DNA of 64,000 nucleotides from Syntrophobacterales bacterium (lineage in GTDB: Bacteria > Desulfobacterota > Syntrophia > Syntrophales > UBA5619): the NCBI GenBank assembly GCA_019429105.1, contig JAHYJE010000013.1, forward strand, positions 4,193 through 68,192, written 5' to 3'. The notes under the pieces are model-generated. The model made no database searches. It was not told the DNA's origin and worked only from the letters and a program-made list of their open reading frames with translations. A program made the translations under genes and the position numbers. Shown piece by piece: positions 18,149 to 64,000 of this stretch. Every line of letters starts with the position of its first letter. Position 1 is the first letter of the stretch.

Positions 18149-18151
18149 GCA

Positions 18152-44873: not shown

Positions 44874-44882
44874 CCTTACAAA

Positions 44883-44903: not shown

Positions 44904-44937
44904 CGGGGAAATATCGTATCAATTGAATGGTGGGAGA

Positions 44938-45558: not shown

Positions 45559-46944
45559 CTACATAACCTGGCTGAACATCTCTAAAACATTCAAAGGCAG
45601 CAAGCCCAGAAGAATGATGGCAAGGCTGAAGAGCCAGCAAAGCGCTTTTTCAGAAAAGGACAGTCTCAAAGGTGTTTCATCTTTTATTTCCCGCGAATAG
45701 CTAATGCGAACGAGATTCAGATAATAGAAGACGGAAATTACGGTATTCACTGCGGCAATAATGACGATGGGCAGGTGCCCGGCCCTGAATGCCGTAACAA
45801 AGAGAAAAAACTTGCCGGTAAAACCGCCGGTCGGCGGAATGCCCGCCAGCGAAAAAGCGGCCACCGCCAGCGTAAACGCCAAAAGCGGCGCCCGGCGGGC
45901 CAGCCCGCCCAAATCGGCAATCTTCAGGTTCTCCCCGTTTCTGGAAAGCAGCATCATCACATAGAACAAAGCCAGATTCATGATCAGATAAACGGTTATA
46001 TAATAAGCTACTGCGGCGTTTCCCGCTTTATTGAACGACAAAAGGCCGAGCATCAGGTAGCCTGCATGGGCAATCCCGGAATAGGCAACCAGCCTTTTGA
46101 GGTCCTGCTGAACCAGCCCCACCAGATTGCCGAGGGTCATCGAAAAGGCGGCAAGCACCATTAGCAGCATGGTCAGTTGGGTCAAAGGCAGGCCCGCCAG
46201 CATCGTCAGTCTGATCAAGAGCGCGGCGCCGGCAACCTTCGGCACGGTGGCGATAAACGCCGTCGTTGCGTCGGACGCCCCTTCATAGATGTCCGGCGCC
46301 CAGAAATGGAGGGGAAACAGCGAAAGTTTGAAGAAAAAGGCACTCATCGTCAGGATAATCGCGAGGATGGCAAGCGGCCTGTCGCCGAAAGACGGCATCT
46401 GGGCGACAATATCGGCAAGATAGGTCGAATGAGCCATCCCGTAGAGATACCCCATGCCATACAGCATGATGCCTGTGGAAATAGCACCGAAAAACAAGTA
46501 CTTGATGGCCGCTTCCAGATGAGCTGTCGTCTTGGTGCGGCGCAGCGGCACGATCGCATAAAGGCTGAAGGAGGATATCTCCAGACTGATCAGAATCGAG
46601 ATAAGTTCAACGGAACTGACGAGGATGGAGAGGCCGAGGGTGGAAAGACCCAGAAACATGAAAAACTCCGGCATTTTTTCCACTTCATCTTCCTTGTTGA
46701 ACATGAAGATTACCAAAGCCAGGCCAATGGTCAGAACTAACTTGAAAATCTGCGAAAAACCATCTACCCGGTAGGCGCCGACAAAAAGAAGGCCCTCTGC
46801 ATTCAGGGAAAAGAGCGCAGCAGCCACTCCCCCGACGGCCAGCACCCGGGCCGGCACAAACAGCGATCGCCTCCCCTTTCCCAGCGACAGGAAAAGAAAC
46901 AATACGGAAAAGGAAAGTATGTAAATTTCAGGCAGCAGCGTCAT
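45559..46944 (-). CDS. nuoN: NADH-quinone oxidoreductase subunit N-type antiporter-like subunit
   Basis: 'PLHFWAPDIYEGASDATTAFIATVPKVAG' is the NuoN-type motif. 461 aa, polytopic. Confidence 0.85.
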   Translation of the reverse strand: MTLLPEIYILSFSVLFLFLSLGKGRRSLFVPARVLAVGGVAAALFSLNAEGLLFVGAYRVDGFSQIFKLVLTIGLALVIFMFNKEDEVEKMPEFFMFLGLSTLGLSILVSSVELISILISLEISSFSLYAIVPLRRTKTTAHLEAAIKYLFFGAISTGIMLYGMGYLYGMAHSTYLADIVAQMPSFGDRPLAILAIILTMSAFFFKLSLFPLHFWAPDIYEGASDATTAFIATVPKVAGAALLIRLTMLAGLPLTQLTMLLMVLAAFSMTLGNLVGLVQQDLKRLVAYSGIAHAGYLMLGLLSFNKAGNAAVAYYITVYLIMNLALFYVMMLLSRNGENLKIADLGGLARRAPLLAFTLAVAAFSLAGIPPTGGFTGKFFLFVTAFRAGHLPIVIIAAVNTVISVFYYLNLVRISYSREIKDETPLRLSFSEKALCWLFSLAIILLGLLPLNVLEMFSQVM

Positions 46945-46956
46945 TGGATCAACCCC

Positions 46957-48441
46957 TTAATGGGAAACTTTATCGAGTTGCATGGCAAGATTTACCAGCG
47001 TGTATTCCATTACATTGACGAAAGGACGGGGAAAGATCCCCACCCAAAGCACAAACACGGCAAGCGGCAGCATATAGATTATTTCCCGCAAGTTCATATC
47101 CCTGATATCCCGTTTGTCTTCCCTCCCCCAGGCTATCTGCTTCAACAGTTTCAGCATATAGGCGGCGGCAATGACCGCCCCGACAATGGCAAAGAAGCCG
47201 GCGATCCGGTTTGTGGCAAAGGTTCCAATCAGTACATACAGCTCGCCGACAAAACTGTTCGTCCCCGGAAACGCGAACGAGGAAACGGCGAAGAGGCCGA
47301 AAAAGAACATGTAAATCGGCATAATCTTCCCCAGACCGGCATTATCGTAAATCTGCCGGCTGTGGGTGCGTTCATAGACAATGCCGACCAGCAGGAAAAG
47401 CCCGCCGGTCGTGATCCCGTGGTTGAGCATCTGGAAGAGAGAGCCGATGAAGCCGTAAATCGAAAACGTGAAGATCCCGAGGATGACGAAACCCATGTGG
47501 GCAACACTGGAATAGGCGACCAGCTTCTTCATGTCAGTTTGACTCAGACAGACGAAGCCCCCATAGATGATGCCGATCAGCGACAAAACGATCATCAGCG
47601 GGGCAAAGTAAAAGCTTGCCTGCGGCACAATCGGCAGGCAGAAACGCATAAAACCGTATGTACCCATTTTCAAGAGAATACTGGCGAGAAAAACGCTGCC
47701 GACGGTCGGGGCCTCGGTATGCGCAGCAGGGAGCCAAGTATGAAACGGAAACATCGGCACCTTGATCGCGAAGGCGATGCCGAAGGCCAGAAAGACCCAG
47801 AACTGAAACTGAAAGCTGTAATTTCTGAACATCGCCTCGGGGATGCTGAAGCTGCCGTTTACTAAATAAATCGCAATGATGGCCACCAGCAGAAAAACGC
47901 TCCCGAAGAGCGTGTAGATGAAAAACTTCAGCGACGCATAGTCCTTGTTCGGCCCACCCCAGATCGCAATGAGCAGATACATCGGGATCAGCATCGCCTC
48001 CCAGAAGAAATAAAAGAGGATGAAGTCAAGGGCGCAGAAAACCCCGATCAGGGCCGTCTCCATGATCAAAATTGCAATCATGAACTCCTTCACCCGCGTC
48101 TGAATCGCCTTCCATGAGGATAGCACGGCAATCGGCGAGATAATTGTCGTAAGCAAAACCAGCATGATCGAAATACCGTCAACCCCCAGCGTGTAATTGA
48201 TCTTGTAGGCAGCAATCCAGGAGATATTTTCCCCAAACTGGAAAATGGGGGTCTTGATGTCGAAATTGGCAAAGAGAAATACCGAAACCGCCAGCGTCAA
48301 GAGCGTCGTAATGAAGGAGGCGACCTTGATCATTCTGTCGCTGCGCATAAAGAGGGTGAAGAGCACTCCTGCAAGCGGCAGGAAGATCGTGGTTGATAAA
48401 ACCGGAAATCCAAACGGATTCATTGTCAGGTATGGCAACAT
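46957..48441 (-). CDS. nuoM: NADH-quinone oxidoreductase subunit M-type antiporter-like subunit
   Basis: 'PFHTWLPAAHTEAPTVGSVFLASILLKMGTYGFMRF' is the NuoM-type motif. 494 aa. Confidence 0.85.
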   Translation of the reverse strand: MLPYLTMNPFGFPVLSTTIFLPLAGVLFTLFMRSDRMIKVASFITTLLTLAVSVFLFANFDIKTPIFQFGENISWIAAYKINYTLGVDGISIMLVLLTTIISPIAVLSSWKAIQTRVKEFMIAILIMETALIGVFCALDFILFYFFWEAMLIPMYLLIAIWGGPNKDYASLKFFIYTLFGSVFLLVAIIAIYLVNGSFSIPEAMFRNYSFQFQFWVFLAFGIAFAIKVPMFPFHTWLPAAHTEAPTVGSVFLASILLKMGTYGFMRFCLPIVPQASFYFAPLMIVLSLIGIIYGGFVCLSQTDMKKLVAYSSVAHMGFVILGIFTFSIYGFIGSLFQMLNHGITTGGLFLLVGIVYERTHSRQIYDNAGLGKIMPIYMFFFGLFAVSSFAFPGTNSFVGELYVLIGTFATNRIAGFFAIVGAVIAAAYMLKLLKQIAWGREDKRDIRDMNLREIIYMLPLAVFVLWVGIFPRPFVNVMEYTLVNLAMQLDKVSH

Positions 48442-48494
48442 AATTTCTCTTCCTTAAAACAACAGCTTATTAAAAAATAACGTCGGCTATTTTT

Positions 48495-50252
48495 CTATAA
48501 AACGGCCCAGAGAATCGCAAAAAAGAGTAAAAGGGAAAGACCAATGTACGTCTGCACCCTCCCGGTTTGCAATTTTTTAACCAGGGAAGCAACCCCCACG
48601 ACCGAGTAGGCTGTGCCGTCAACTACCCCGTCTATGGCCTTCTGATCAAATGTGTAAGACAGGGAGGCCGTGCCGAAAAGGGACCTCAAGCCCAGCGTTC
48701 GGTAAAGCTCGCCCCAGAAGGAATCAATCGGAGCGATTACCTTCTCGTCGAATTTTATGAAAAGCAGCGTTGCCTTGCGGTAAAAATAATCAATATCGAG
48801 GTTGAGCTTGGCGTCAGGGGAAAGCTTCTTCACCAGCAGATAAAAAACAAGCCCGGTAAAGGAGAGAATCTGCATCATCTCGGAAAGATGGGAGGCGTTG
48901 TACGGATTGAAATCTGCGGAAAAAGGCAGCAGTTGATAAAAGGTCTGCGGAAAAGTTCCGATAAGAAAGCACAAAAGTGAGGTGAGCCCCATCGCCCACA
49001 GCATGTTGGCCGGGGGCTCGTGGGCAGCCTGGTGGTTTCCCGCTTCCTTCCCGAAAAAGGTGAAATAGGTAACCTTCAGCCCCACCGAGAGGAATGTTCC
49101 AATCCCGGCAAGATTAAGCAGCTGCACCAGCCAGATTCTGCCCTCGTGATGAGCCGCGGCGATGATCATCGATTTGCTGACAAAGCCGCTGAAAAAGGGA
49201 AACCCGGAAATCGAGATCGCGCCGATGACGTAAAATATCATGGTAAGCGGCATGTACTTGTACATCCCGCCCAGTTGGGTCATTTTTGAGGTTCCCGTCA
49301 TGTAGAGCACCGCGCCGGCGCCCATGAAGAGCAGCGCCTTGTAAAGGATATGGGCAAAGGCGTGAGCGGCCGCGCCGTTTACCGCCAGCATCGTTCCAAT
49401 GCCCACGCCGGCCACCATGTACCCGACCTGGCTTATGATATGGTAAGCCAGGACGCGCCGGATGTCGTTTTCGATAATCGCGTAAACAACGCCGAAGACC
49501 GTCATCGCCGTTCCCAGAATGGCAAGAATCTCAAAGCCCGAAAATCCCCGGGCCAGAACATAAACCGCGGTCTTGGTAGTAAATGCGCACAGAAACACGG
49601 CCCCTTCAACGCTTGCCTCCGGATAGGCGTCCGGCAGCCAGGCATGCAGCGGAATCACGGCGGCATTGAGGGCAAAACCGGCAAGGATCAGATACTCCGG
49701 CCACGAGGCGCCGGCGGGGGGGATGGCGTTAAAGGCAAAGCTTCCGGTTTTTGTGTAGTAGAACATCATCCCCGCAAAAAGGAGCAAACCCCCGAAGACG
49801 TGGAAGAGCAGATAACGATAACCGGCAGCATCCGATTGCGGACGTTTACCATACCAGATCAAAAAGACGGAGGAAAAGGCCATCGCCTCCCAGAAGATGA
49901 AAAGGGTCAGGTAGTCGCCGGCAAAGACCGCCCCGAGCGAACCGCCCACATAATAGAACCCGGCGATATGATGACCATCTTCGTTTCGGTGCAGGGCATA
50001 AAGCGCGCCAAGAAAGGACATGATCACAAACACCCAGGCAAATACCATGCTGAGTTTGTCAACCCGGCCGAAGAGACCGGCAACACCGAGAAAATTATAC
50101 GCCCCGTAGTTGCCGTAATTGGTCAGGGCAACGGATATTATTGCCGCAGTGGGGATTAACAGAATAAAGACCTTCTTGAGCTTGCCCCGGAGAAACGGCA
50201 GGAACAGGGCCCCAATAAAATAGAATATTGCCGGATGGATCCAGTTATTCAT
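48495..50252 (-). CDS. MrpD/NuoM-type antiporter-like subunit with ~110-aa C-terminal extension ending in one TM helix (paralogue of 56893-58620); occupies the nuoL position
   Basis: 'PLHAWLPDAYPEASVEGAVFLCAFTTKTAVYVL', 'YHIISQVGYMVAG', 'AHILYKALLFMGAG'. The C-terminal tail is '...DIDYFYRKATLLF...TYIGLSLLLFFAILWAVL'. The ATG at 50252 overlaps the stop of the 82-aa ORF (ATGAATAA). Confidence 0.8.
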   Translation of the reverse strand: MNNWIHPAIFYFIGALFLPFLRGKLKKVFILLIPTAAIISVALTNYGNYGAYNFLGVAGLFGRVDKLSMVFAWVFVIMSFLGALYALHRNEDGHHIAGFYYVGGSLGAVFAGDYLTLFIFWEAMAFSSVFLIWYGKRPQSDAAGYRYLLFHVFGGLLLFAGMMFYYTKTGSFAFNAIPPAGASWPEYLILAGFALNAAVIPLHAWLPDAYPEASVEGAVFLCAFTTKTAVYVLARGFSGFEILAILGTAMTVFGVVYAIIENDIRRVLAYHIISQVGYMVAGVGIGTMLAVNGAAAHAFAHILYKALLFMGAGAVLYMTGTSKMTQLGGMYKYMPLTMIFYVIGAISISGFPFFSGFVSKSMIIAAAHHEGRIWLVQLLNLAGIGTFLSVGLKVTYFTFFGKEAGNHQAAHEPPANMLWAMGLTSLLCFLIGTFPQTFYQLLPFSADFNPYNASHLSEMMQILSFTGLVFYLLVKKLSPDAKLNLDIDYFYRKATLLFIKFDEKVIAPIDSFWGELYRTLGLRSLFGTASLSYTFDQKAIDGVVDGTAYSVVGVASLVKKLQTGRVQTYIGLSLLLFFAILWAVL

Positions 50253-50493
50253 AAAAATCCTCTTTTTTGCCAAGAATCGTATGGGCCAGTCCCTTGCTGA
50301 AGCGGACCAGCAGATAACCACCGATTATTGTAAACAAGGTCCAGAAGGCCGGGATTTTATCAACGAAGAAATGGACGTGTTCCCTCGGCAGCAGCACGTC
50401 GAAAATGACCAGCACAACAAGGAACCCGAAAAACAATTTCTTCAGGAGTTCGGCCCTTGCCAGTAAATACTCTATTATTTTAAGTATATTCAT
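50245..50493 (-). CDS. small (82 aa) two-TM membrane protein, conserved partner of the duplicated module
   Basis: Shares the pattern H-x2-(F/W)-x3-IP-x-F-x2-LF-...-K-x-L-...-L-x-K-x-ED-x-Y with the 72-aa ORF at 58610-58828. It is translationally coupled to the downstream gene. Confidence 0.6.
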   Translation of the reverse strand: MNILKIIEYLLARAELLKKLFFGFLVVLVIFDVLLPREHVHFFVDKIPAFWTLFTIIGGYLLVRFSKGLAHTILGKKEDFYE

Positions 50494-50568
50494 AAAACGC
50501 CTCTTGCACCCTTGAGAATGACAATCTTTTTAAAATGCTGCATGCTGACCAGGCTCTTTTTAACAGGG

Positions 50569-52038
50569 CTAAAACAAATTACTGATAAGCTTGACAAAAA
50601 AATCCGGATAAAACCCCAGCAGAACCGAGATCAGCGCTGTCAGCACGAGCGGCACAACCATCGTCAGCGGGGCTTCCTTGATGCCGGAGGTGGTCCAGTT
50701 CTCCTTTTTCCCCTGGAAAAAGGCCTTGATCGTAATCGGCACAAAATACCCGGCGTTCAAAATGCTGCTCGCCAACAAAACGACAACGATGGGGATGTTG
50801 CTTATCTCCAAGGCGCCGTTCAAGAGATACCACTTCGTCACAAATCCGGAAACAGGCGGCACGCCGATCATGCTGAGGGAGGCAAGGGCGAAAGCACCCA
50901 TCGTAAAAGGCATGGCATAGCCAATGCCCGCCATATCGCTGATCTTCCTCTTGTTATGGGCAACGAAGATCGCGCCGGCGCAGAAAAAGAGGGTAATCTT
51001 GCTGAACCCGTGATTGACAATATGGATGACCCCGCCCAGAACGCCGGTGTTGTCGAGAAGCGCCACCCCCAGGATAATGTACGACAACTGGCTCACCGTT
51101 GAATAGGCGAGCCTTGCCTTGAGGTCGTCTTTGGTAAGGGCGATAATGGAGGCCGCCAGGATCGTAAAGGAAACGACATACGCGGTGACAATGCCGATCC
51201 CCAAATCGTTGAGGATCTTCGTCCCGAACGTGGACAGCATGACCCGGGAAATGCAGAACACCCCTGCCTTCACAACGGCCACCGCATGCAAAAGGGCGCT
51301 GACCGGCGTCGGAGCGACCATTGCGGAGGGGAGCCAGTTGTGCAGGGGCATGATCGCCGCCTTGGCAAAACCGGCGATGAAAAGGATATAAGTGACGGTA
51401 ATCCAGATGCCGTCTGAACCGGCGGGAAATATCCCCGTGTGGATATTGTCGGCAAAATCAAGCGTACCGGTCATTATGTAGGTGAGAATGACAGCCGGCA
51501 ACAAAAAACCCTTCGATGTCCCGACGAGATAGACAAGATATTTCTTCGCCCCGGCATAGCCTTCTGCGTCCTGATGGTGGGCCACGAGCGGATAGGTAAA
51601 GAGACTGATAACCTCATAAAAGAGATAGAGGGTAAACAGGCCGCCCGCATAAGACACCCCCTGGGCTCCCAGGATTGCCGCGGCAAAACATGTGTAATAA
51701 CGGGACTGTGCATGTTCCTTGAGGGTTCGCATGTAGCCGATGTTGTAGATGGATGCGAAGATCCAGAGAAACGAGGAGATGATGCCGAAGATAAGCGACA
51801 GGGCGTCCACCCGGAAATTCAGGGAAATACCGGGAGCAATCGCCGAAAGGGTGTAGGTGATCACCCCGCCGTTCCAGACAATCGGAACCATTCCCATAAC
51901 GGCCGCAAAGGTCAGAACGGCCCCGGCTATCGACCAGAATTCCCTGATATTCGGGGTCTTGCGGAAAACCATGATCAGAATGGCAGTCGCAAAAACAATG
52001 CCGATCGGTAAAAGCGGTAATGCGCTATCGATAACCAT
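50569..52038 (-). CDS. NuoL/MrpA-N-type antiporter-like subunit without a long C-terminal lateral-helix extension (paralogue of 58825-60327)
   Basis: 'PLHNWLPSAMVAPTPVSALLHAVAVVKAGVF' is the NuoL/MrpA-type motif. It is only 489 aa long. Confidence 0.8.
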   Translation of the reverse strand: MVIDSALPLLPIGIVFATAILIMVFRKTPNIREFWSIAGAVLTFAAVMGMVPIVWNGGVITYTLSAIAPGISLNFRVDALSLIFGIISSFLWIFASIYNIGYMRTLKEHAQSRYYTCFAAAILGAQGVSYAGGLFTLYLFYEVISLFTYPLVAHHQDAEGYAGAKKYLVYLVGTSKGFLLPAVILTYIMTGTLDFADNIHTGIFPAGSDGIWITVTYILFIAGFAKAAIMPLHNWLPSAMVAPTPVSALLHAVAVVKAGVFCISRVMLSTFGTKILNDLGIGIVTAYVVSFTILAASIIALTKDDLKARLAYSTVSQLSYIILGVALLDNTGVLGGVIHIVNHGFSKITLFFCAGAIFVAHNKRKISDMAGIGYAMPFTMGAFALASLSMIGVPPVSGFVTKWYLLNGALEISNIPIVVVLLASSILNAGYFVPITIKAFFQGKKENWTTSGIKEAPLTMVVPLVLTALISVLLGFYPDFFVKLISNLF

Positions 52039-52041
52039 AGG

Positions 52042-52365
52042 TCAGTACTTCAGCTCCTTCATATCTCCACCCTCGATATGCTGATAGCGCTTTGCAATGA
52101 TGATGATGATGCTCAGCGCAATAGCCGATTCCGCGGCGGCTATTCCCATTATAATAAGCGTGAATGCCAATCCATAGGGGTTTTCCGGAACGATGAACCG
52201 ATTGATCGCAACGATATTTAACCCCGCGCCGTTCATGATCAGTTCCATCGAAACCAGCATCCCGATCAGCGTTCGTCGGTAAAGAAGGCCGGCAATCCCG
52301 CAAAACAGCATAAAAACGGCGACAAACAGATAGATGTTGGAGTTATTGTAAAGTAAATTGCTCAT
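52042..52365 (-). CDS. nuoK: NADH-quinone oxidoreductase subunit K
   Basis: 107 aa, 3 TM. 'RRTLIGMLVSMELIMNGAGLN' and 'GIAAAESAIALSI' form the NuoK pattern. Confidence 0.85.
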   Translation of the reverse strand: MSNLLYNNSNIYLFVAVFMLFCGIAGLLYRRTLIGMLVSMELIMNGAGLNIVAINRFIVPENPYGLAFTLIIMGIAAAESAIALSIIIIIAKRYQHIEGGDMKELKY

Positions 52366-52865
52366 TTGTCACCCCGCGAATTAAGGGAGAGCATAACCGC
52401 CCCGATAATGGCAACAACCAGCAAAAGCGAGATCAACTCAAACGGCAGAATCAGCGTGTCGGTAAACGCACGGCCCACATCCTTAGTCGTCATCAGAAAA
52501 TTCGGCGCCGTTTTGCCCGGCAGATTTGTCAAAACAAACCGGATGAACATGACAACCGAAACCAAGGCGATGACAAGCGCCGAAAGCAATTTTCCGACAG
52601 CCTTGAAATCGTGAGATTTCCTGGAATATTGACCCAGCAGCATAATTGCAAAGGCAATAAGAATGGAGATTGCCCCGACATAGATCAAAATCTGCATCAT
52701 CGCCAGAAAGGCGCTGTTTAGATAGATATAAAGCCCAGCCACGCCGAACATGGCGGTAATCAGACCCAGCATCGCATAGACTATGGAACTTGCAAAGACG
52801 GCCGTCAAGGCCCCTGCCATCGTCACCGCGACGGCGAAAAGGAATATGCTCTCCCCGATGCTCAT
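52362..52865 (-). CDS. nuoJ: NADH-quinone oxidoreductase subunit J
   Basis: 167 aa. 'FLAMMQILIYVGAISILIAFAIML' is the NuoJ pattern. Confidence 0.8.
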   Translation of the reverse strand: MSIGESIFLFAVAVTMAGALTAVFASSIVYAMLGLITAMFGVAGLYIYLNSAFLAMMQILIYVGAISILIAFAIMLLGQYSRKSHDFKAVGKLLSALVIALVSVVMFIRFVLTNLPGKTAPNFLMTTKDVGRAFTDTLILPFELISLLLVVAIIGAVMLSLNSRGDK

Positions 52866-54306: not shown

Positions 54307-54349
54307 TTGGCCATCACATATATAACCTGTCTTCTTGAGACGGGTTTTC

Positions 54350-56373: not shown

Positions 56374-56384
56374 AACCGCAAAAC

Positions 56385-56789
56385 TTACAGGTGGGAGATT
56401 TTCCTTTTCCAGGTAAACACCCCTTTCCCCCAGGCATAAACAACAGCCAAGGCAAGAATTACAACAAAGGAAAGCAATGCGTAAAATTCATGAATCCTCT
56501 CTCCCTTGGCATAACTTAGCGCAACGGGGAAAAGATAGAGAACGTCAACATCAAAGGCAATAAAGATAAGCGCGTAAACATAATAATGGATGCCGTATTT
56601 TATCCGGGCGCTGCCGAAGGGAGGGATCCCGCATTCGTACGTATTATGGGTATTTTTGCCCCTGGTTTTCGAAGCAAGAAGGTGGGGGAGAATGATGGAA
56701 AAAAGCGCAAATAATACTGCAACGAGGCTGAAAATGGCTACTGGTGTAAAGTCTTCTAAATTAGTCATATAAAACTCAATTCCAATCAA
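56385..56789 (-). CDS. nuoA: NADH-quinone oxidoreductase subunit A
   Basis: 134 aa, 3 TM. '[15 protein letters not shown]...[13 protein letters not shown]' is the NuoA pattern. Confidence 0.85.
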
Positions 56790-56829
56790 GCTGCATCTGA
56801 ACCGCTCAACGGCTCACTGAACTTGGCGC

Positions 56830-56858
56830 TCTTTAACAATGATGCCATTCGTTGTCAA
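56830..56858 (-). promoter_or_regulatory. candidate internal sigma-70 promoter in front of nuoA (TTGACA-N17-TAAAGA)
   Basis: The minus strand reads TTGACAacgaatggcatcattgtTAAAGA. It lies in the only gap over 100 nt (56790-56892) within the 18-kb array. Confidence 0.3.
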
Positions 56859-56892
56859 GATTTTTTTCACTTTAAGTGCAAAAGGCAACTGC

Positions 56893-58620
56893 TCACAACT
56901 GCATGAGCCAGCCCCAGCCGGCAAGCAACAGATAAGATAAAAGCGTGACAGCAATCAAAATTCCTACCGCCGGTCGGTAATCGTCCGGATCATAGTCTCT
57001 GGCATCGGCCTTGCCCGAAAAGAAAGAAACCGGGTTTTTGCCGATAACCACAAGTCTGCGGACTATGCCATTGATGCTCTTTTCCGCCCTATTGAAAAGC
57101 GCTTCGACATTCACGGTAAAAATTCTTTCCACCAGTTGCGCCGGCTTGCGGTAGAACCAGTCCACATCGAGGGCTATTTCCGCTTTTCCGGCAACCTTTT
57201 TCCGATAAATCCAGAAGGCGACAAACGTAAAAATCAAGATCTGAGACGTTTCGGTCAGATGGATAAGCGTGTATGGCGCAAAGGGAATGTGAAAAGGCAG
57301 CATCTCGTAGAGAAGATTCGGCATGACCCCGAATAATATACAGAAAAAAGCGGCTATCGTCATGGCGAAATACATATTCACACGCAAAGGAATTGGCGAC
57401 AAGCCCCGGTCCTTGCCAAACCACGTATAATAAGGCAACTTCAGGCCGATGGACAAAAAGGTCCCCACGGAAGCGAGTGTCAGCAAGAGCCAGACCATTG
57501 TGTAATGCGCCTCTCCCGCTGCCGCGATGACCATTGATTTGCTGATGAACCCGTTGAAAAGGGGAAAGCCGGAAATGGAAAACGCGCCGATCATATAAAG
57601 CCATAAAATAAGGGGCTGTTTTTTCACCAGACCGCCCAACTCGGTCATTTTGCTTTTCCCTGTGGTATAGATGACGCTTCCCGCTCCCATAAAAAGAAGC
57701 GCTTTGTAGAGGATGTGGCTAAACGCGTGGGCTGTAGCGCCGTTAATGGCCAACTGCGTGCCGATCCCGGCGCCGGCAACCATGTATCCCACCTGACTGA
57801 TGATGTGATAAGACAGGATGCCGCGGATGTCGTTTGCCAGAACGGCAAAGACAACGCCGTAAAGCGCCATGAAAACGCCGAGAAAAACAAGAATTTCCCA
57901 GCCGGGGAATATTCTCAGCAAGACATAAACGGCGGTTTTCGTAGTCAGGGCGCTCAAAAAAACAGCCCCCGTCACCGTCGCTTTCGGATAGGCATCGGGG
58001 AGCCAGGCATGTAAAGGTACAACCGCCGCATTTAACGCGACTCCACCCAAAATCAGCCAGGAGGAAAGGGCGTTGCCGGGGGGAAGCTGTTCAATCAGGA
58101 TTTGCCCTGTCTCCGCGACGTGCATAATGATTCCGGATAGTAAAAGTGCGCCGCCAAAGAGATGAAAGATAAGATAGCGCATCCCCGCCCGTCCGGATTC
58201 CTCAGTTTTACTCGCCCAGACCAGGTATGCGGAGGGAATGCTCATCAGCTCCCAGAAGACAAAGAGAGTAAAGAAATCACCGGCAAACGTAACCCCTATG
58301 GCGCCCGCTGCATACAGCAGGGCCGCCGCCTGTTCCGCTTTTTCCCGGACATGAAACGCAAAAAGCGCGCCGATGAACGTAATCAAGGCAAATATCGTCC
58401 CGAAGACACGACTCAAACTGTCCATCTTGAACAGTACGAGCTGATAATCCATGAACTTCAAGGTGAGATTTATCCCGACCGGCGCCAACCAGACGGCAAG
58501 CAGGGCGAGTAACGGAATGAGCAGCGTGAGATAAGCGCGAGACAGTCTTGGCAAGAAGGGAAGGAGCATGGCGCCGGCAACCATGATGATAAACGGGGCT
58601 ACGGTTGTTTCAATTCCCAT
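56893..58620 (-). CDS. MrpD/NuoM-type antiporter-like subunit with ~110-aa C-terminal extension ending in one TM helix (paralogue of 48495-50252)
   Basis: 'PLHAWLPDAYPKATVTGAVFLSALTTKTAVYVL', 'YHIISQVGYMVAG', 'SHILYKALLFMGAG'. The tail is 'DVDWFYRKPAQLV...VGILIAVTLLSYLLLAGWGWLMQL'. The ATG at 58620 overlaps the 72-aa ORF by 11 nt. Confidence 0.8.
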   Translation of the reverse strand: MGIETTVAPFIIMVAGAMLLPFLPRLSRAYLTLLIPLLALLAVWLAPVGINLTLKFMDYQLVLFKMDSLSRVFGTIFALITFIGALFAFHVREKAEQAAALLYAAGAIGVTFAGDFFTLFVFWELMSIPSAYLVWASKTEESGRAGMRYLIFHLFGGALLLSGIIMHVAETGQILIEQLPPGNALSSWLILGGVALNAAVVPLHAWLPDAYPKATVTGAVFLSALTTKTAVYVLLRIFPGWEILVFLGVFMALYGVVFAVLANDIRGILSYHIISQVGYMVAGAGIGTQLAINGATAHAFSHILYKALLFMGAGSVIYTTGKSKMTELGGLVKKQPLILWLYMIGAFSISGFPLFNGFISKSMVIAAAGEAHYTMVWLLLTLASVGTFLSIGLKLPYYTWFGKDRGLSPIPLRVNMYFAMTIAAFFCILFGVMPNLLYEMLPFHIPFAPYTLIHLTETSQILIFTFVAFWIYRKKVAGKAEIALDVDWFYRKPAQLVERIFTVNVEALFNRAEKSINGIVRRLVVIGKNPVSFFSGKADARDYDPDDYRPAVGILIAVTLLSYLLLAGWGWLMQL

Positions 58621-58828
58621 CGTAGTAGTCCTCCCGCTTGGACAACAAAATCTTGCCGAGAAATTTTGCAAAAATGATTATCAACAGACAACCGAAAAAA
58701 CCGAACAGGGCGAAGAAACCGGGAATTGCACTCCACCACCCATGGAGCTCATCGCCGGTCGTCATAATACCTCCCGCGATGGAAGCCGCGCCGCCAATTC
58801 CCAGAAGAGCCCAGCGCAATTTATTCAT
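58610..58828 (-). CDS. small (72 aa) two-TM membrane protein, paralogue of 50245-50493
   Basis: '...HGWWSAIPGFFALFGFFGCLLIIIFAKFLGKILLSKREDYY'. It has an ATGA overlap with the upstream gene and an 11-nt overlap with the downstream gene. Confidence 0.6.
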   Translation of the reverse strand: MNKLRWALLGIGGAASIAGGIMTTGDELHGWWSAIPGFFALFGFFGCLLIIIFAKFLGKILLSKREDYYDGN

Positions 58829-60327
58829 GATCCGGTTACCCCCAAGATGCTGCCGCTTACCTGAACGGCAAGACTATAGAAATGCAGAAACAGATCGGGA
58901 CGAATCCCCCACAAGATCGATAAAAATGCCGTAACAGCAAGAGGAATAACAATAGCCAAGGAAGCCTCTCCCCTGAGAAACGGCGCGGCAGGGCTCTTGA
59001 AAAAGGCCCGATAAACAACCGGGGCAAAATATCCGGCATTGAGAATGCCGCTCAGCAACAGTAGTGCCAGCGGAACAACGGAACCGGCCTGCAAAGATCC
59101 CAGTCCCAGTTGCCATTTACTGACAAAGCCGTTGAGCGGCGGGACTCCCGCCAAGCCGATCGCGCCGATAGTAAAGGCGCCCATCGTCCAGGGCATCACC
59201 CGGCCAATGCCATCGAGTTCACTGATTTTTTCCTTATGGTGCGTCACATAAATTGCCCCGGCGCAAAAAAAGAGCGTGATTTTCATAGTCGCATGGCTGG
59301 CTATATGGAGCAGACTGCCGACAAGCGACGCAGGTGAAAGCAGCGCCGCGCCGAGAACAATATAGGACAAGTGCCCGACTGTCGAATAGGCCAAACGATG
59401 CTTCAGGTTATCCTGCCTGAAGGCAAGCAGTGAGGCAAAAATGATCGTAACGCCGGCAAAGGCCGCCAATATGATATTAAGATCGAATTGTCGCATCAAT
59501 TGCGGCCCGAAAACAAAACCGACAACCCTCACAACTCCGAATACCCCGGATTTGACCACCGCGACGGCGTGCAGCAGGGCGCTAACCGGGGTCGGAGCTA
59601 CCATCGCCGCCGGAAGCCAACTATGCAGCGGCATAATGGCGGCCTTTACCCCCACGCCGCCGATAAAAAGGGCAAAAAGAACTAAAACCGTACCCGGCGA
59701 CAGCAAGGCATCCCCAAACATCCCCCCCGCTTTGAAATCGAGAGTTCCAGCCAAACGGTATGTCCAGGCCGTCGCCGCGATCAACAGCACCCCCGCGGTA
59801 AGGGTATAGACGAGATACTTACGGCCCGCCGCTATGGCCACAGGAGTTTCCTTGTGAATAACCAGCGGATAGGTGGCAATGGTCAATATCTCGTAAAAAA
59901 AGATGAATGTCAGCAGGTTGGCGGCAAAGGCGACGCCGATGGTCGCGGAAAGGCAGATCGCGAAGCTTGCAAAATACCGGGTCTGCTTATGCTCATTCAA
60001 ACCCCGCACGTAGCCGATGGAGTAAATGGAAGTCAACATCCAGAGACCGGAGGCGATCAACGCAAAAAAAATCCCAAAGGAGTCTGCTTTCAGCGCCAGC
60101 GAGATGCCGGGAGATATTTCCCAGAATGTGAATTCAGCCACCTTTCCTGCCAAAACGCCCGGCAACAGCAGAAGCACAAACGAAAATTTGGCAACGCTTG
60201 CCGCAAGCGTCCAGAATTCCCTTATAAAAACATGTCTGGAACTCAAGGCAATCAGCAGAGCGGCTGCCAGCGAAACCAAAACCGCACAGAGCGGCAGCAA
60301 AGATCTGTAAATTTCAGGATCGGTCAT
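58825..60327 (-). CDS. NuoL/MrpA-N-type antiporter-like subunit without a long C-terminal extension (paralogue of 50569-52038)
   Basis: 'PLHSWLPAAMVAPTPVSALLHAVAVVKSGVF', 'KITLFFCAGAIY'. 500 aa. Confidence 0.8.
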   Translation of the reverse strand: MTDPEIYRSLLPLCAVLVSLAAALLIALSSRHVFIREFWTLAASVAKFSFVLLLLPGVLAGKVAEFTFWEISPGISLALKADSFGIFFALIASGLWMLTSIYSIGYVRGLNEHKQTRYFASFAICLSATIGVAFAANLLTFIFFYEILTIATYPLVIHKETPVAIAAGRKYLVYTLTAGVLLIAATAWTYRLAGTLDFKAGGMFGDALLSPGTVLVLFALFIGGVGVKAAIMPLHSWLPAAMVAPTPVSALLHAVAVVKSGVFGVVRVVGFVFGPQLMRQFDLNIILAAFAGVTIIFASLLAFRQDNLKHRLAYSTVGHLSYIVLGAALLSPASLVGSLLHIASHATMKITLFFCAGAIYVTHHKEKISELDGIGRVMPWTMGAFTIGAIGLAGVPPLNGFVSKWQLGLGSLQAGSVVPLALLLLSGILNAGYFAPVVYRAFFKSPAAPFLRGEASLAIVIPLAVTAFLSILWGIRPDLFLHFYSLAVQVSGSILGVTGS

Positions 60328-60340
60328 TTTCGTTCGTCCG

Positions 60341-61855
60341 TTACATTCCCGCAGGAATGATGTTCTGGATAATCCCCTTCACAATAGCCGAGTTGAACAA
60401 GCCGATAAAGATAAGGGAAAAAGAAAGGACAACTACCGGAATGGTCAGTGAAAAATTCTCTCCTCCGGCAATGGTCACTTCGTTCGTTGCATTTTCCGGG
60501 GCGTTCCCTGCCTCAGTAGCACGGTCCGGCGGCGACTTGAGATAGATATTTTCAAGGATCCGGAAAAAATAAACGGCATTCAACAGGCTGCTGGCCATAA
60601 TCACCGCCAGAAAAAGCCAGTTTCCCTTATCCACTGCGCCCAACGCCAGGTACCACTTGCTGAAGAAACCGGCTGTGGGCGGCAGGCCGATCATCGAAAG
60701 AGCGGCTAACGTAAAGGCGGCCGTTGTCCAGGGCAGTTTTTTCCGGCATTCGGAGTCCATCTTTTCGATATCGGAATGACCCAGCTTTTTTCTCAGGTTG
60801 GCGGCAACAAGAAACAATGAGCCTTTCATGAAGGCATGATTCAGAATATGCAGCACCGCGCCGATATAGCCCAGCGGATTGGCCAGCCCTATCCCCAGAC
60901 CGATATAACCGATTTGCGCGACACTGCTATAGGCAAGCATCCTCTTTAGCTCTTTCTGGGCGATCGCCATAACGGAACCGTAGATAATGCCTGCTGCCGA
61001 AAGCCAGGCAATAAAATCGGCAATGGGGAACGCCTTATCGACAAAAGGAGCGCCAAAGACAAAAAACATTATTCGGATAATTACGTACGCGCCTATTTTA
61101 GTGCCGATTGGGGCGATCAGCGCCGAAGAGGTGGAAGGGGCATAGGTATATGAGTCGGGCAGCCAGCCGTGGAGCGGAAAAATCGCCATCTTGATACCGA
61201 TGCCTGTCACCATGAGCAAAAGGGCAACGTTGACAGCAGAATTCGGACCAAGCAGGGGAAGGATCGCCTTCACATCGGCCATATTCAGCGAACCGGTTGC
61301 CATGTAAAGAAATCCTATGCCGATAAGGTAGAAGGAAGCGCCAATTGTTCCCATGATCAGGTACCGAAAGGCTGCAACCGGCGCCTTCTTTTCGCCGATG
61401 CCGATCAGACCATAGGCCGAAAGCGAAAATATTTCTATAAAGACATAGAGATTGAATAGATCGCCCGTGATGATTATGCCGTTTGCGCCGCAGAGAAAAA
61501 GCAGGACCAGGGCATAATACGGAACCGGCTTCTCGTTAATTTCCGACGTCTGCAGGCCGCTTGAATGCCAGATAACAAAAAGGGCAACAACATTCACCAC
61601 CAGGGCAATAAACGCCGAAAGGGGATCAAGGACATACTCGATGCCGAGGGGAGGAATCCAGCCGCCGAAATGATAAGAGATGCGGGCGCCGCTGAGAATC
61701 CTGGTAAGATTGTAACAAGCCACGACAACAGAGAAAAAAGAAGCCGTCGCCGCAAGGGGAAACGCCAGTTTCTCTTTTTTAAGCGCCAGCACCGGGATCG
61801 AGATTGCGGTTGCCAGAAGCGCCAGAGGAATGAGGGCGGGGGAATTCGGGATCAT
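60341..61855 (-). CDS. mrpD: MrpD/MbhH-type antiporter-like subunit
   Basis: 'PLHGWLPDSYTYAPSTSSALIAPIGTKIGAYVIIR'. 504 aa. It directly follows the MrpC-like gene. Confidence 0.8.
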   Translation of the reverse strand: MIPNSPALIPLALLATAISIPVLALKKEKLAFPLAATASFFSVVVACYNLTRILSGARISYHFGGWIPPLGIEYVLDPLSAFIALVVNVVALFVIWHSSGLQTSEINEKPVPYYALVLLFLCGANGIIITGDLFNLYVFIEIFSLSAYGLIGIGEKKAPVAAFRYLIMGTIGASFYLIGIGFLYMATGSLNMADVKAILPLLGPNSAVNVALLLMVTGIGIKMAIFPLHGWLPDSYTYAPSTSSALIAPIGTKIGAYVIIRIMFFVFGAPFVDKAFPIADFIAWLSAAGIIYGSVMAIAQKELKRMLAYSSVAQIGYIGLGIGLANPLGYIGAVLHILNHAFMKGSLFLVAANLRKKLGHSDIEKMDSECRKKLPWTTAAFTLAALSMIGLPPTAGFFSKWYLALGAVDKGNWLFLAVIMASSLLNAVYFFRILENIYLKSPPDRATEAGNAPENATNEVTIAGGENFSLTIPVVVLSFSLIFIGLFNSAIVKGIIQNIIPAGM

Positions 61856-62229
61856 GGCTGCGCTTTCATCCGTTCGATCAGGAGCGGTTCGTCCAGGGTC
61901 TTATAGTGACGATAAATGACAATGGCCAATGCGAAGGCGACCCCGCTTGTAGCCACGCCGACGACGATGGCGGTAAGCATCAGGCAATGCTGCAGCGGAC
62001 TGATATAGCGCGCTGCATCGGCAGCGCCGATCGCCGGATCGAGTACAGGCACTGTCGCTGCCCATTTGGCAGCGCTTGCCACATAGAACATGATGATCGA
62101 AACCTGGAAAATGGTCATCCCGATCAGCTTCTTGACGAGATTGTTCTTGAAAATCATCCCATACATGCCGATCAACATGAGAAGAATAACGCCCCAGTAG
62201 GTATAGTGCCCCCGGATAAAATCAATCAT
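61852..62229 (-). CDS. mrpC: MrpC/MnhC (NuoK-like) subunit
   Basis: 'GMYGMIFKNNLVKKLIGMTIFQ' and 'SPLQHCLMLTAIVVGVATSGVAFAL' form the MnhC pattern. The ATG at 62229 overlaps the upstream stop (ATGATTGA). Confidence 0.8.
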   Translation of the reverse strand: MIDFIRGHYTYWGVILLMLIGMYGMIFKNNLVKKLIGMTIFQVSIIMFYVASAAKWAATVPVLDPAIGAADAARYISPLQHCLMLTAIVVGVATSGVAFALAIVIYRHYKTLDEPLLIERMKAQP

Positions 62230-62662
62230 CGGGATATTCCTCCAGCAAATCATCGTATATGGCAACGAGAATCGCCATAACCGCAAGGCCTACGCCAATT
62301 TCCACCATCAGGATCCCAAGCGAACGAAGTTCCGGTGCGCTAAGACCGGGAAAGGGAAGAAAGGCGTAGTTGAGAAATTCCCCCCCGGACAGCATCGCCG
62401 TTAAACCTGTCCCGAAATAAATCAGCACCCCGATGGAACCAAGAGGCGTCCCCCAGATTCTCCGGAACTGAAGCTGGGCCAGATCATAACCAGCGGCGAG
62501 GCGGATGAGCAGGAGGGCGGCAGCCAACATTGTCCCACCCTGGAAACCCCCTCCGGGGCTGTAATGTCCATGAAATATGACATAAAGGCCGAATAACATA
62601 ATAAACGGCGAAACAGCTCCGCTTACCGTTAGTACTATGGGATTATATTTGTAGGCAAGCAT
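62222..62662 (-). CDS. MrpB/MnhB-domain subunit (MbhF-like)
   Basis: 'HGHYSPGGGFQGG' is the MnhB-domain hallmark. 146 aa, 4 TM. Confidence 0.75.
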   Translation of the reverse strand: MLAYKYNPIVLTVSGAVSPFIMLFGLYVIFHGHYSPGGGFQGGTMLAAALLLIRLAAGYDLAQLQFRRIWGTPLGSIGVLIYFGTGLTAMLSGGEFLNYAFLPFPGLSAPELRSLGILMVEIGVGLAVMAILVAIYDDLLEEYPDD

Positions 62663-62722
62663 CCCGATTACCTCATAAAAAATAATGGCGTGAGAAAATC
62701 TCCTGCTTTATCTGCCTTAATG

Positions 62723-63037
62723 TCAGCGGGAGTTCTTTAAAGGCTTTTTCCTTCTTCTCAGCACCAGAAAACAGATCAGCCCGGCCGTAAGGATAACCGT
62801 CTCCTCTCCCAGCGTATCGAAACCTCGATAATCGGCAAGGATGACTGTCACCATATTGGGTGTTTTCGCATCCCTCAGGGCATTGCGGATATAGAAGGAA
62901 GACGCCCCCGGGGAATCCACCAGACTTCTTGTTGAGTGCATGCCCGCCCCGGCATCGCCACGATTGGGAAGCCCTGTCGTGCCATAAATCAAAAGCGCCC
63001 CAAAGGCGATCAGCAATAGCCAGTTGACTATTTTCAA
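62723..63037 (-). CDS. MnhB-N-terminal-like small subunit (MbhE-like)
   Basis: 'NMVTVILADYRGFDTLGEETVI' is the motif I associate with the MnhB/MbhE region. 104 aa. Confidence 0.65.
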   Translation of the reverse strand: MKIVNWLLLIAFGALLIYGTTGLPNRGDAGAGMHSTRSLVDSPGASSFYIRNALRDAKTPNMVTVILADYRGFDTLGEETVILTAGLICFLVLRRRKKPLKNSR

Positions 63038-63279
63038 TCCCCGCTCCTTCTTGATGTCTGGAAAATCAGGACAACAAAAAATATTCCCGTTATCCCGGCG
63101 CCGACCACCGCCTCGGTAAACCCTACGTCAATAGCCCCCATCACCGCGTAAAGCAGGGCCGATACAAAGCTGAAGACACTGAGCGTTACCACCGCCGTCA
63201 GGAGATCCTTGACCGTCAACGAAATAACCGCCGAAACAAGCATAAAAACAGCCATGATCGTCTCTATTTCCCAGTACAT
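63034..63279 (-). CDS. MbhD/DUF4040-like small subunit (MrpA C-terminal-region homologue)
   Basis: 81 aa, 3 TM. 'GAIDVGFTEAVVGAGITG' fits the MbhD/DUF4040 pattern. Confidence 0.65.
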   Translation of the reverse strand: MYWEIETIMAVFMLVSAVISLTVKDLLTAVVTLSVFSFVSALLYAVMGAIDVGFTEAVVGAGITGIFFVVLIFQTSRRSGD

Positions 63280-63599
63280 TTCTCAGTCTCCCCACCGCTT
63301 CTTTTTTTAAACCATGGTCTGAGCCCACTCTGGATGGCCGCATTGGCAAGGGCATGTGTTCCGGTTGGATTCGTCAGAAAAACAAAAATGAGGATGAACA
63401 GGAGCTTGGCGCTGTTAAGCGTCAATCCCTCAATAAGAATCATTCCAAAAATCACGAGCATTATTCCCAGTGTATCGCTTTTTCCGGTCGCATGATTACG
63501 GGTGTAGAAATCAGGCAGTCGGATTAATCCAACACTTCCGACCAGCATAAAAAAGGCGCCCGCTATTACCGCGGCAATGCCCACGGTATTTCCGATCAT
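63264..63599 (-). CDS. mrpG: MrpG/MnhG subunit
   Basis: 'GSVGLIRLPDFYTRNHATGKSDTLG' is the MnhG/PhaG pattern. Confidence 0.8.
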   Translation of the reverse strand: MIGNTVGIAAVIAGAFFMLVGSVGLIRLPDFYTRNHATGKSDTLGIMLVIFGMILIEGLTLNSAKLLFILIFVFLTNPTGTHALANAAIQSGLRPWFKKRSGGETEKCTGK

Positions 63600-63865
63600 T
63601 CGCCCACCTTTTTAACTGCTATGAATTTGGCAATGGCGACAATCCCGATAAAATTGAGAACCGCATAAGCAAGAGTAATATCCACAAACATGTCAAACCT
63701 TTTGAACACAAAACCTATAGCCAGAATCAACACCATCGTCTTGGTGCCGATCGCTCCGGCGCCCAGCATCCTGTCAAAAATGGTAGGTCCCCGGAGAACC
63801 CGATAAAGGGGGATGAAAATAATGGAGGTCAGTATAACTGTATAATATAAAAAGAATCTGTCCAT
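63596..63865 (-). CDS. mrpF: MrpF/MnhF subunit
   Basis: 'YRVLRGPTIFDRMLGAGAIGTK' and 'DITLAYAVLNFIG' form the MnhF/PhaF pattern. Confidence 0.8.
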   Translation of the reverse strand: MDRFFLYYTVILTSIIFIPLYRVLRGPTIFDRMLGAGAIGTKTMVLILAIGFVFKRFDMFVDITLAYAVLNFIGIVAIAKFIAVKKVGE

Positions 63866-63877
63866 TTTGTTTACCGC

Positions 63878-64000
63878 TCACACTCTTGTTATCGCTACCT
63901 CTTTCACAACCTTGCCGGGATTCCGTTCGAAGAGCCCCGCCACTTGACCGGGCAGGGAACCGTCAATGATGCCGGAAGATGAAGCATCCATCAGCGAATG
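63878..64000 (-). CDS. 3' end of an MrpE/MnhE-like gene (partial, continues beyond the window)
   Basis: My own translation of the open minus-strand frame gives '...HSLMDASSSGIIDGSLPGQVAGLFERNPGKVVKEVAITRV*'. This resembles MrpE C-termini as I remember them ('..H.MDAS....E.....I.EV..'). Its position is the one expected before MrpF. Confidence 0.45.
   Translation of the reverse strand, partial: HSLMDASSSGIIDGSLPGQVAGLFERNPGKVVKEVAITRV

Follow-up and report, generated by a model that had tools for sequence, protein, structure and literature searches.

An Mrp-type antiporter cluster followed by a complex I cluster without NADH module: probably two neighbouring membrane complexes in one Syntrophales lineage

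Introduction

This study concerns an array of 23 genes in which an mrp cluster is directly followed by a nuo cluster lacking nuoEFG. It lies on the minus strand, at one end of a 64,000-nt stretch of DNA from a bacterium of the Syntrophales (assembly GCA_019429105.1, contig JAHYJE010000013.1, positions 4,193 to 68,192), hereafter referred to as the window. Several described systems resemble one part or another of this array. The rhizobial 'green complex I' contains two MrpD-like subunits instead of NuoL (Degli Esposti & Martinez-Romero 2016, as reported in PMC9040806 and PMC7415380), and Complex_I_3 of Candidatus Manganitrophus carries an MrpD1/MrpD2 pair in the place of NuoL (PMC9040806, PMC7415380). 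For Manganitrophus, reverse electron flow from quinol to ferredoxin, driven by the extra pumps, has been proposed (PMC9040806). In the '2M' complex I, a canonical NuoL whose helix is extended is accompanied by a second NuoM (Chadwick et al. 2018, as reported in PMC9040806). In sulfate reducers, nuo operons that lack nuoEFG are a familiar finding, and ferredoxin has been proposed as their electron donor (PMC4287179). Besides sulfate reducers, Chlorobi and further groups carry such NuoEFG-less enzymes, which are named NUO11 or NUO10 (PMC4758237, PMC4287179). With regard to the Mrp antiporters, irregular clusters (group 3) include an anaerobe type with three mrpB-like genes (PMC5703873), and the membrane-bound complexes MBH and MBS are precedents for Mrp modules built into redox complexes (PMC8165549, PMC7684303).

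Here, we show how the array compares with these systems. We conclude that it probably encodes two separate membrane complexes, whose genes are adjacent in a single lineage of the Syntrophales. This reading is favoured because each half is found complete and alone elsewhere and contains connecting subunits of its own, and because the gap between the halves contains a conserved promoter-like box. A previous sequence-only reading of the window had proposed either a single complex with a very long ion-translocating arm, for which no positive support was obtained, or a three-pump Mrp-like complex next to a four-pump complex I variant, which is the alternative favoured by the evidence.

Results

Gene content and boundaries of the array

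The open reading frame (ORF) list and the translations confirmed that the array runs uninterrupted on the minus strand from the window edge at 64000 down to 45559. It comprises 23 intact genes, one fewer than the 24 ORFs counted in the sequence-only reading. Their order is MrpE-F-G-MbhD-MbhE-MnhB-MrpC-MrpD-L1-s1-X1, then NuoA-B-CD-H-I-J-K-L2-s2-X2-M-N, in which L and X are antiporter-like subunits and s is a small subunit. As previously noted, the genes overlap by 4-16 nt or are separated by gaps of 75 nt or less, with a single larger gap between X1 and nuoA. The length of 103 nt given for this gap had to be revised: since the most likely start of NuoA is the ATG at 56768 (127 aa, as called in relatives), the gap spans 124 nt (56769-56892).

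The gene assignments of the sequence-only reading agree with the Pfam annotation in both halves, whereas the small ORFs s1 and s2 (72 and 82 aa) match no Pfam or NCBIfam model. PF00361 identified seven antiporter-like proteins, exactly the same ORFs as had been picked out previously, three of which belong to the Mrp half and four to the Nuo half. The glutamate of transmembrane helix (TM) 5 is present in all seven. The TM12 lysine is found in six; NuoM has a glutamate instead, like canonical NuoM. The TM7 lysine is kept in MrpD, L1, L2, NuoM and NuoN, and an asparagine occupies this position in X1 and X2.

At its 3' end, the array is bounded by a convergent TetR gene (44923-45543, plus strand). 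The DNA located 5' of the window edge was judged from the loci of relatives, which carry the labels of the census described below (L001 and so on). In the three tandem loci extending far enough for the upstream order to be read (L001, L084 and L083), MrpE is preceded by DnaG-RpoD-CT398-like-GTPase, or at least by the GTPase, and the array therefore starts at mrpE, with no nuoEFG before it. The possibility that nuoEFG lies immediately upstream of 64000 had been raised, but no NuoEFG was detected within 4 kb upstream of the array in the relatives. Domain annotation of the 33 large ORFs that lie elsewhere in the window revealed no hydrogenase, no formate dehydrogenase and, as had been stated, no NuoE, F or G. 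The remaining 45 kb of the window consist of housekeeping and transport genes.

A synteny search in related genomes recovered the identical 23-gene order in four further Syntrophales assemblies (L001/L002, L083, L084 and L004), with X1 identities of 70-86%. An assembly chimera or artefact can be ruled out, as the order is repeated in five independent assemblies. The closest proteins to those of the array are from metagenome-assembled genomes (MAGs) of the Syntrophales.

The two halves of the array

All coordinates in this section refer to the minus strand. Homologues of MrpA to MrpG are all encoded together in the first 11 genes, MrpA being represented by MbhD, MbhE, L1 and X1. For MrpE, whose gene runs past the window, only the C-terminal 40 aa are present (63878-64000), and these match the C-terminal end of the MNHE gene (PF01899) in L001. 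MrpE is followed by MrpF (63596-63865; PF04066, 5e-12), MrpG (63264-63599; PF03334, 3e-28), an MbhD-like protein (63034-63279; PF13244, 7e-17) and an MbhE-like protein (62723-63037; PF20501, 2e-12), the latter two being separately encoded pieces of the MrpA C-terminal domain. Next come MrpB (MnhB; 62222-62662; PF04039, 1e-27), the NuoK-like MrpC of 125 aa, with an internal ATG start as in relatives (61852-62229; PF00420, 4e-17), and the canonical antiporter-like subunit MrpD (60341-61855; PF00361, 6e-62), which keeps the TM5 Glu and the TM7, TM8 and TM12 Lys. The Mrp half ends with L1, an MrpA-N/NuoL-like core of 500 aa without lateral helix (58825-60327; PF00361 and weak PF00662), s1, a small subunit of 72 aa with two predicted TMs and a K.EDYYD C-terminus (58610-58828), and X1, an antiporter-like protein of 575 aa with a C-terminal TM15, lateral helix and TM16 (56893-58620; NF009310, 719 bits, cut-off 564). 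Compared with the closest relative, L001, X1 has the lowest identity (86%), followed by NuoA (89%), and the other 19 proteins are 94-100% identical. The differences between X1 and its counterpart in L001 (10001-11722) cluster between residues 360 and 540, a region that contains the lateral helix.

The last 12 genes encode NuoA, with its ATG start as in relatives (56385-56768; PF00507, 1e-27), NuoB (55918-56373; PF01058, 1e-29), a NuoCD fusion (54350-55924; PF00329 and PF00346), NuoH (53314-54306; PF00146, 5e-127), NuoI of 151 aa, with an internal ATG start (52862-53317; Fer4 families), NuoJ (52362-52865; PF00499, 1e-30) and NuoK, in which both membrane Glu are present (52042-52365; PF00420, 3e-18). 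They are followed by L2, a NuoL/MrpA-like core of 489 aa without lateral helix (50569-52038; PF00361 and weak PF00662; NF006236, 759 bits, cut-off 663), s2, a small 2-TM subunit of 82 aa and paralogue of s1 (50245-50493), X2, an antiporter-like protein of 585 aa with a NuoL-like lateral helix and TM16 (48495-50252; NF009310, 726 bits), NuoM, with its TM12 Glu (46957-48441; TIGR01972, 588 bits, cut-off 264; PF01059; PF00361), and NuoN, with its TM12 Lys (45559-46944; TIGR01770, 339 bits, cut-off 333; PF00361). The core set NuoA, B, C, D, H, I, J, K, M and N is complete according to Pfam and NCBIfam, the role of NuoL being taken by X2 and L2.

The translations also bear out what had been read about the cofactor-binding subunits. 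NuoB contains the N2 cysteines (CCAIEMM, GNC and GCPP motifs), NuoI contains two CxxCxxCxxxCP motifs for two [4Fe-4S] clusters, and NuoD is devoid of [NiFe] cysteines. In NuoD, the quinone-site His (HPSTHG) and Tyr (SYYQF) are kept, as seen in the alignment to 7q5y_B and 6hum_H. Its best match in the PDB is Aquifex NuoCD (7q5y_B, 1e-108), and lower scores are obtained with NdhH (3e-98), MbsL of MBS (1e-57) and MbhL of MBH (2e-45); the NCBIfam NuoD model NF004739 is matched with 429 bits (cut-off 360). NuoD is of the complex I type and not of the Mbx/MBS type, and the Nuo half is a genuine complex I quinone (Q) and proton-pumping (P) module without NADH (N) module.

Each half has a NuoK-type subunit of its own (MrpC and NuoK, respectively) and a NuoJ-type subunit of its own (MbhD/E and NuoJ, respectively), as assigned by Pfam. 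Likewise, each half has its own lateral-helix subunit (X1 and X2, respectively) and membrane anchor.

Both halves occur as stand-alone clusters

For the census, one representative genome per species was scanned with an alignment of X proteins, and 80 loci were annotated against the window proteins. The 11-gene Mrp cluster was found alone in Ignavibacteria, Bacteroidota, Balneolales, Verrucomicrobiota, Acidobacteriota, Dehalococcoidia, Spirochaetia and many Desulfobacterota. These stand-alone clusters are flanked by unrelated genes and are present without any redox-subunit genes. The Mrp operon is also found alone in lineages just as close to the window as those bearing the tandem, namely L085 (70% X1 identity), L086 (66%) and L003 (70%); in L085, the next gene is a convergent GGDEF gene. 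The gene order E-F-G-MbhD-MbhE-B-C-D, which the sequence-only reading had regarded as diagnostic of Mbh/Mbx, is thus what a widespread, stand-alone type of Mrp cluster normally shows.

The Nuo half, in the order A-B-C-D-H-I-J-K-L2-s2-X2-M-N, was found alone in the Desulfobacterota L035, L040 (Desulfosudis oleivorans), L046, L048, L059, L070, L074 and L079 (Desulfoluna), where the 2.5-3 kb of DNA upstream of the cluster is non-Mrp. Rearranged versions of the Nuo-half genes occur in rhizobia, Planctomycetota, Vicinamibacteria and Manganitrophaceae. The mrp-nuo tandem itself is limited to one Syntrophales clade.

Several loci of the census showed arrangements of their own. In a Bacteroidota MAG (L011, 1-13224), the order nuoK-nuoL-nuoM-[11 mrp genes]-nuoN is found on a single strand. 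In L015 (Ignavibacteriales, 1-11758), nuoL-M is separated from mrp by a 1-kb gap, and in L008 (Ignavibacteriaceae, 4234-20786), mrp is followed by 3 kb encoding VanY, ORF6N and a tRNA synthetase, and then by nuoJKLMN. Two Gracilimonas loci (L021 and L024) carry nuoJK on the opposite strand, 1.7-2 kb past the mrp 3' end, and an opposite-strand antiporter-like gene 2.7-3.4 kb before mrpE; in L021, which was checked by Pfam, an Omp85 gene lies between mrp and nuoJK. The Mrp clusters of six Desulfobacteraceae/Desulfatiglandales loci (L028, L030, L036, L037, L038 and L039) contain a second s-X pair after the first X, resulting in four antiporter-like and two helix-bearing subunits per cluster. In a Verrucomicrobia MAG (L025, 3810-17782), the L-s-X mrp cluster is directly followed by ORFs whose best matches are L2 (approximately 1,000 aa), MrpD, MrpE and MrpG. 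These apparently belong to another mrp cluster, of the canonical kind and on the same strand, in which the ORF of approximately 1,000 aa is probably MrpA. Finally, a 3.4-kb gap between nuoD and nuoH, which could hold nuoEFG, was observed in L053, L065 and L072 (Planctomycetota and Acidobacteriota).

The gap between X1 and nuoA

The gap of 124 nt contains a promoter-like box, composed of a -35 element TTGACA (56853-56858) and a -10-like element TAAAGA (56830-56835), with an A-tract upstream. In the gap alignment of five genomes (the window, L001, L083, L084 and L004, whose X1 proteins are 70-86% identical), AAAAATCTTGACAA followed by a 17-nt spacer and a hexamer starting with TA is invariant. 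Approximately 20 nt downstream of the box, an imperfect palindrome (GAGCC, 5-7 nt, GGCTC) is kept across the aligned gaps and could be an operator or a 5'-UTR (untranslated region) hairpin. Outside the box and the palindrome, the gap is variable: the window carries a 31-nt deletion, and a T-run found 5' of the box in the relatives is deleted in the window.

RNA folding of the X1 3' end and of the gap revealed no GC-rich hairpin with a T-run common to the five genomes. A generic promoter and terminator scan gave results at the level of the shuffled background (28 found versus 17 expected and 40 versus 32, respectively) and missed the box, which surfaced only through the alignment of relatives; the promoter call consists of the consensus match and its conservation. 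The simplest reading is that the gap holds an internal putative nuo promoter, with possible read-through from mrp, given that no terminator is evident in the gap.

The L-s-X triplet

The identities between the two triplets are 46% for L1/L2, 32% for s1/s2 and 48.5% for X1/X2. The L core is NuoL/MrpA-like, shows the motif PTPVSALLHA in TM8 and ends after TM15. The X core is MrpD-like. X had been described previously as a D-type subunit with a C-extension and L as an L-type subunit. The extension is indeed present, but the last 125 residues of X are NuoL/NdhF/MrpA-like and comprise TM15, a long amphipathic lateral helix and TM16, whereas the L subunit is a core without that helix. X2 aligned to NdhF (6hum_F) and to mycobacterial NuoL (8e9g_L) nearly to their C-terminal ends, through the lateral helix and TM16, and carries the NuoL-like motif DGVVDG...LQTGRVQTY. 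In the AlphaFold2 model of X1 (predicted local distance difference test, pLDDT, 73.5), the corresponding helices span residues 452-476, 486-528 (43 residues) and 550-572, and the top full-length structural matches found by Foldseek are MrpA, NdhF and NuoL. These alignments, the X1 model and the NCBIfam matches indicate that X is the helix-bearing stand-in for NuoL/MrpA-N and that L is an additional pump. The triplet takes the place of both MrpA-N in the antiporter and NuoL in complex I.

The TM7 lysine is regarded as essential in NuoL/M/N and MrpA/D. In X, this position is occupied by an asparagine (N197 in X1, 58030-58032; N196 in X2, 49665-49667), which is found in 96 of the 98 X proteins from 86 loci. 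The TM5 Glu and the TM8, TM11 and TM12 Lys of the family are 100% conserved. A small ORF is located between L and X in 86 of 88 loci; it has two hydrophobic stretches, likely two TMs, and the consensus ...H..W..IP.F.A.FGF.GC.LII..SK.LG...L.K.EDYYD.

In a neighbour-joining tree, a rough tree without support values that was used only for the distinctness of the X family and the distance between X1 and X2, the X proteins group together as a family separate from MrpD, L, NuoM and NuoN, and X1 and X2 lie on distant branches. A recent tandem duplication of L-s-X can be ruled out in view of the identities of 46-48% and the distant clades. The tandem therefore arose by two old modules coming to lie next to each other rather than by a local duplication.

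Comparison with described systems

The Nuo half shares with green complex I an MrpD-like pair with a small ORF in between, followed by NuoM and NuoN, and hence four antiporter-like subunits. In the six rhizobial loci compared (L049, L052, L055, L060, L078 and L081), the orthologues are 54-56% identical to the L2 of the window, 50-52% to X2, 50-53% to NuoM and 59-60% to NuoB. However, the rhizobial order is rearranged and nuoEFG lies within the cluster, whereas the window shows the canonical order A-B-CD-H-I-J-K without EFG; the fused NuoCD and the preceding mrp operon are features of the window. In Mesorhizobium dulcispinae (L049, 7455-21527), for example, the order is nuoJ-K-L2-s2-X2-M-N-A-B-C-D-E-F-G, with the NADH module included (Pfam), and for this reason the window was not considered a plain member of green complex I.

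In Manganitrophus Complex_I_3, a relative of which is included in the census (L054), NuoL is replaced by the same L/X-type pair. The Manganitrophus complex differs from the Nuo half by a second NuoM, which brings the number of pumps to five, and by 26 aa inserted into the lateral helix of its MrpD2 (PMC9040806). In contrast, NuoM (TM12 Glu) and NuoN are each present once in the window. The resemblance to NUO11/NUO10 consists in the lack of an N-module, in complete Q and P modules and in the occurrence in menaquinone organisms, and the fused NuoCD corresponds to 'NUO10'. The textbook NUO11 has a single NuoL, in place of which the window has L2-s2-X2.

The Mrp half encodes all seven subunit families of the Mrp (CPA3) antiporters (structures 6z16, 7qru and 7d3u), and X1 is predicted to fold like MrpA-N with its lateral helix. 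It differs from them in that MrpA is split into four genes, in that there are three antiporter-like subunits instead of two, and in the TM7 Asn of X. In our reading, the 'three mrpB-like genes' of the anaerobe-type clusters fit MbhD, MbhE and MnhB. We found no characterised member of the L-s-X Mrp cluster type in the literature searched.

The MBH and MBS (Mbx) complexes (6cfw and 6u8y) have the same Mrp order E-F-G-MbhD-MbhE-MnhB-C-D, with homologues of NuoB/C/D/H/I downstream on the same strand, and the NuoD homologue of MBS also lacks the [NiFe] cysteines. In these complexes, however, the Mrp module replaces NuoA/J/K/M/N, whereas the window has both sets. Membership in this group was rejected on account of the presence of NuoA, J, K, M and N and of the NuoD scores (1e-108 for complex I versus 1e-57 for MBS and 2e-45 for MBH). 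Three other candidates were rejected as well: Fpo, as the FpoD model NF040602 scores 362 (cut-off 600); the cyanobacterial NDH-1, as the NdhH model NF005649 scores 361 (cut-off 583); and the '2M' complex I, as there is only one NuoM signature (TM12 Glu; TIGR01972) and no canonical NuoL.

The sequence-only reading had considered both proposed compositions to be outside the textbook. This holds true, but they have already been published in part, in the form of green complex I, of Manganitrophus and of the EFG-less nuo operons. The outcome that it had named as refuting, a reduction to two ordinary neighbouring operons, has largely come about, although neither a standard Mrp nor a standard Nuo11 is present. 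In the literature searched, we found no description of the combination of L-s-X with an EFG-less canonical order, which the window shares with its Desulfobacterota relatives, nor of its tandem with mrp, and no purified or solved three-pump Mrp or L-s-X complex I.

Other features of the window

Beyond nuoN, the region 41687-45543 contains the TetR-family regulator, followed by a minus-strand PilS-like PAS histidine kinase and a sigma-54 response regulator. At a distance from the array, two domains share an ORF of 645 aa (10849-12786, minus strand), an HMGL-like domain at residues 76-349 and a Cache/PDC sensor domain at residues 506-615. This may be an uncommon gene fusion, or the mechanical ORF calling may have run two genes together.

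Discussion

Two neighbouring complexes and the alternatives

The reading that we consider likely, two separate complexes side by side, has an observed basis in the gene content, in the stand-alone clusters found elsewhere, in the key residues and in the conserved promoter-like box. According to this reading, the first complex would be an 11-gene Mrp-type (CPA3) cation/proton antiporter with three antiporter-like subunits, including MrpD, in which MrpA would be dismantled into the MbhD-like and MbhE-like pieces (C-terminal domain), the L1 core, s1 and the helix-bearing X1. The second would be a 12-gene complex I without NADH module, in which L2-s2-X2 would stand for NuoL and bring the number of antiporter-like subunits to four. 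The nuo genes would be driven by their own promoter in the 124-nt gap, with mrp read-through being possible.

The Nuo half would be linked to menaquinone and would work with a partner of lower potential than NADH, most plausibly ferredoxin. It may translocate approximately five ions per two electrons, that is, one per antiporter-like subunit plus one, if the count argued in PMC9040806 applies. Estimated from standard potentials, electron transfer from ferredoxin (approximately -450 mV) to menaquinone (-74 mV) would provide approximately 0.38 V, or approximately 0.75 eV per two electrons, which would be enough for approximately five H+ at 150 mV, whereas transfer from NADH to menaquinone (approximately 0.25 V) would pay for only approximately three. 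In a syntroph, the reverse run would be equally plausible, an ion gradient driving electron flow from menaquinol to ferredoxin. As for the architecture of the arm, X2 would occupy the NuoL position, its helix clamping NuoM and NuoN, and L2 would be an added distal pump. We infer this order, L-X-M-N, because the extension of X2 has approximately the length of that of canonical NuoL, whereas Manganitrophus needed a 26-aa insertion (PMC9040806). The Mrp half would exchange Na+ (or K+) for H+ and thereby balance the gradient made or used by complex I.

Several points weigh against this reading. Within the clade, the tandem is kept even where the X1 identity falls to 70%, and its genomic context is the same throughout, which suggests selection for linkage. 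Furthermore, Bacteroidota, Ignavibacteria and Balneolales show an independent linkage of the L-s-X type of Mrp with nuo genes, in one case nested between nuoM and nuoN, which hints at more than a chance neighbourhood. Without a conserved terminator between X1 and nuoA, the 23 genes may form a single transcript, and the putative nuo promoter in the gap is a consensus match. The C-terminal part of the X1 model, for its part, has a low confidence (pLDDT 41-69). The electron partner, the ion specificity, the stoichiometry, the L/X arm order and the transcription are those that we infer.

The alternative that survives best also assumes separate particles, but as an obligate functional pair, co-transcribed and co-regulated, with Mrp interconverting the H+ and Na+ gradients of the four-pump complex I; the array would then be a single physiological unit, a Na+/H+-balanced ferredoxin:menaquinone energy converter. 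The gap lacking a conserved terminator fits this view, as do the linkage kept over the Syntrophales clade at X1 identities of 70-86%, the independent linkage of this Mrp type to nuo in bacteria of the Fibrobacteres-Chlorobi-Bacteroidetes (FCB) group (L011, L008, L015, L021 and L024) and an estimated chance of less than 1% that a 14-kb operon lies within 10 kb of a given locus. Nevertheless, we regard an obligate pair as unlikely: most genomes with an Mrp of the L-s-X type lack nuo genes within 10 kb of it, sister lineages of equal divergence carry Mrp alone, the Nuo half is not preceded by Mrp in its Desulfobacterota relatives, and the FCB linkages may derive from one ancestral insertion. More speculative, and somewhat less likely still, is the idea that the L-s-X-type Mrp is a dedicated partner of complex I and that its recurrent nuo linkage reflects physical or obligate functional coupling in a Na+/H+-converting respiratory unit not yet described, of whose specialisation the exchange of the TM7 Lys for Asn in X would be a part. 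Very improbable is a super-complex of all 23 proteins, in which an MBS/Mbx-like Mrp module would be joined to a full complex I membrane arm with seven antiporter-like subunits: the single strand with its tight junctions throughout, the Mbh/Mbx-like Mrp order and the MBH/MBS precedent (PMC8165549, PMC7684303) speak for it, but both halves are known as complete stand-alone clusters, the array has NuoA/J/K/M/N in addition to the Mrp module that replaces them in MBH/MBS, each half has a lateral-helix subunit and a membrane anchor, NuoD is of the complex I and not of the MbsL type, a promoter-like box lies between the halves, and no linker subunit is evident.

Significance

With two neighbouring complexes as the preferred reading, the array is not a new kind of machine. 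The leads of more interest are the shared L-s-X module, the TM7 change in X, the s subunit, for which there is no model, and the recurrent mrp-nuo linkage. The presence of L-s-X in both an antiporter and a complex I is a clean case of module exchange between the two families, and the TM7 Asn of the X family is a natural test case for proton-pumping models that treat the TM7 lysine as essential. If the preferred reading is true, the array joins the complex I variants with extra pumps, as an EFG-less, ferredoxin-type version in syntrophic Desulfobacterota, and a reversible enzyme coupling five ions to two electrons between ferredoxin and menaquinone would bear on how syntrophs live near the thermodynamic limit.

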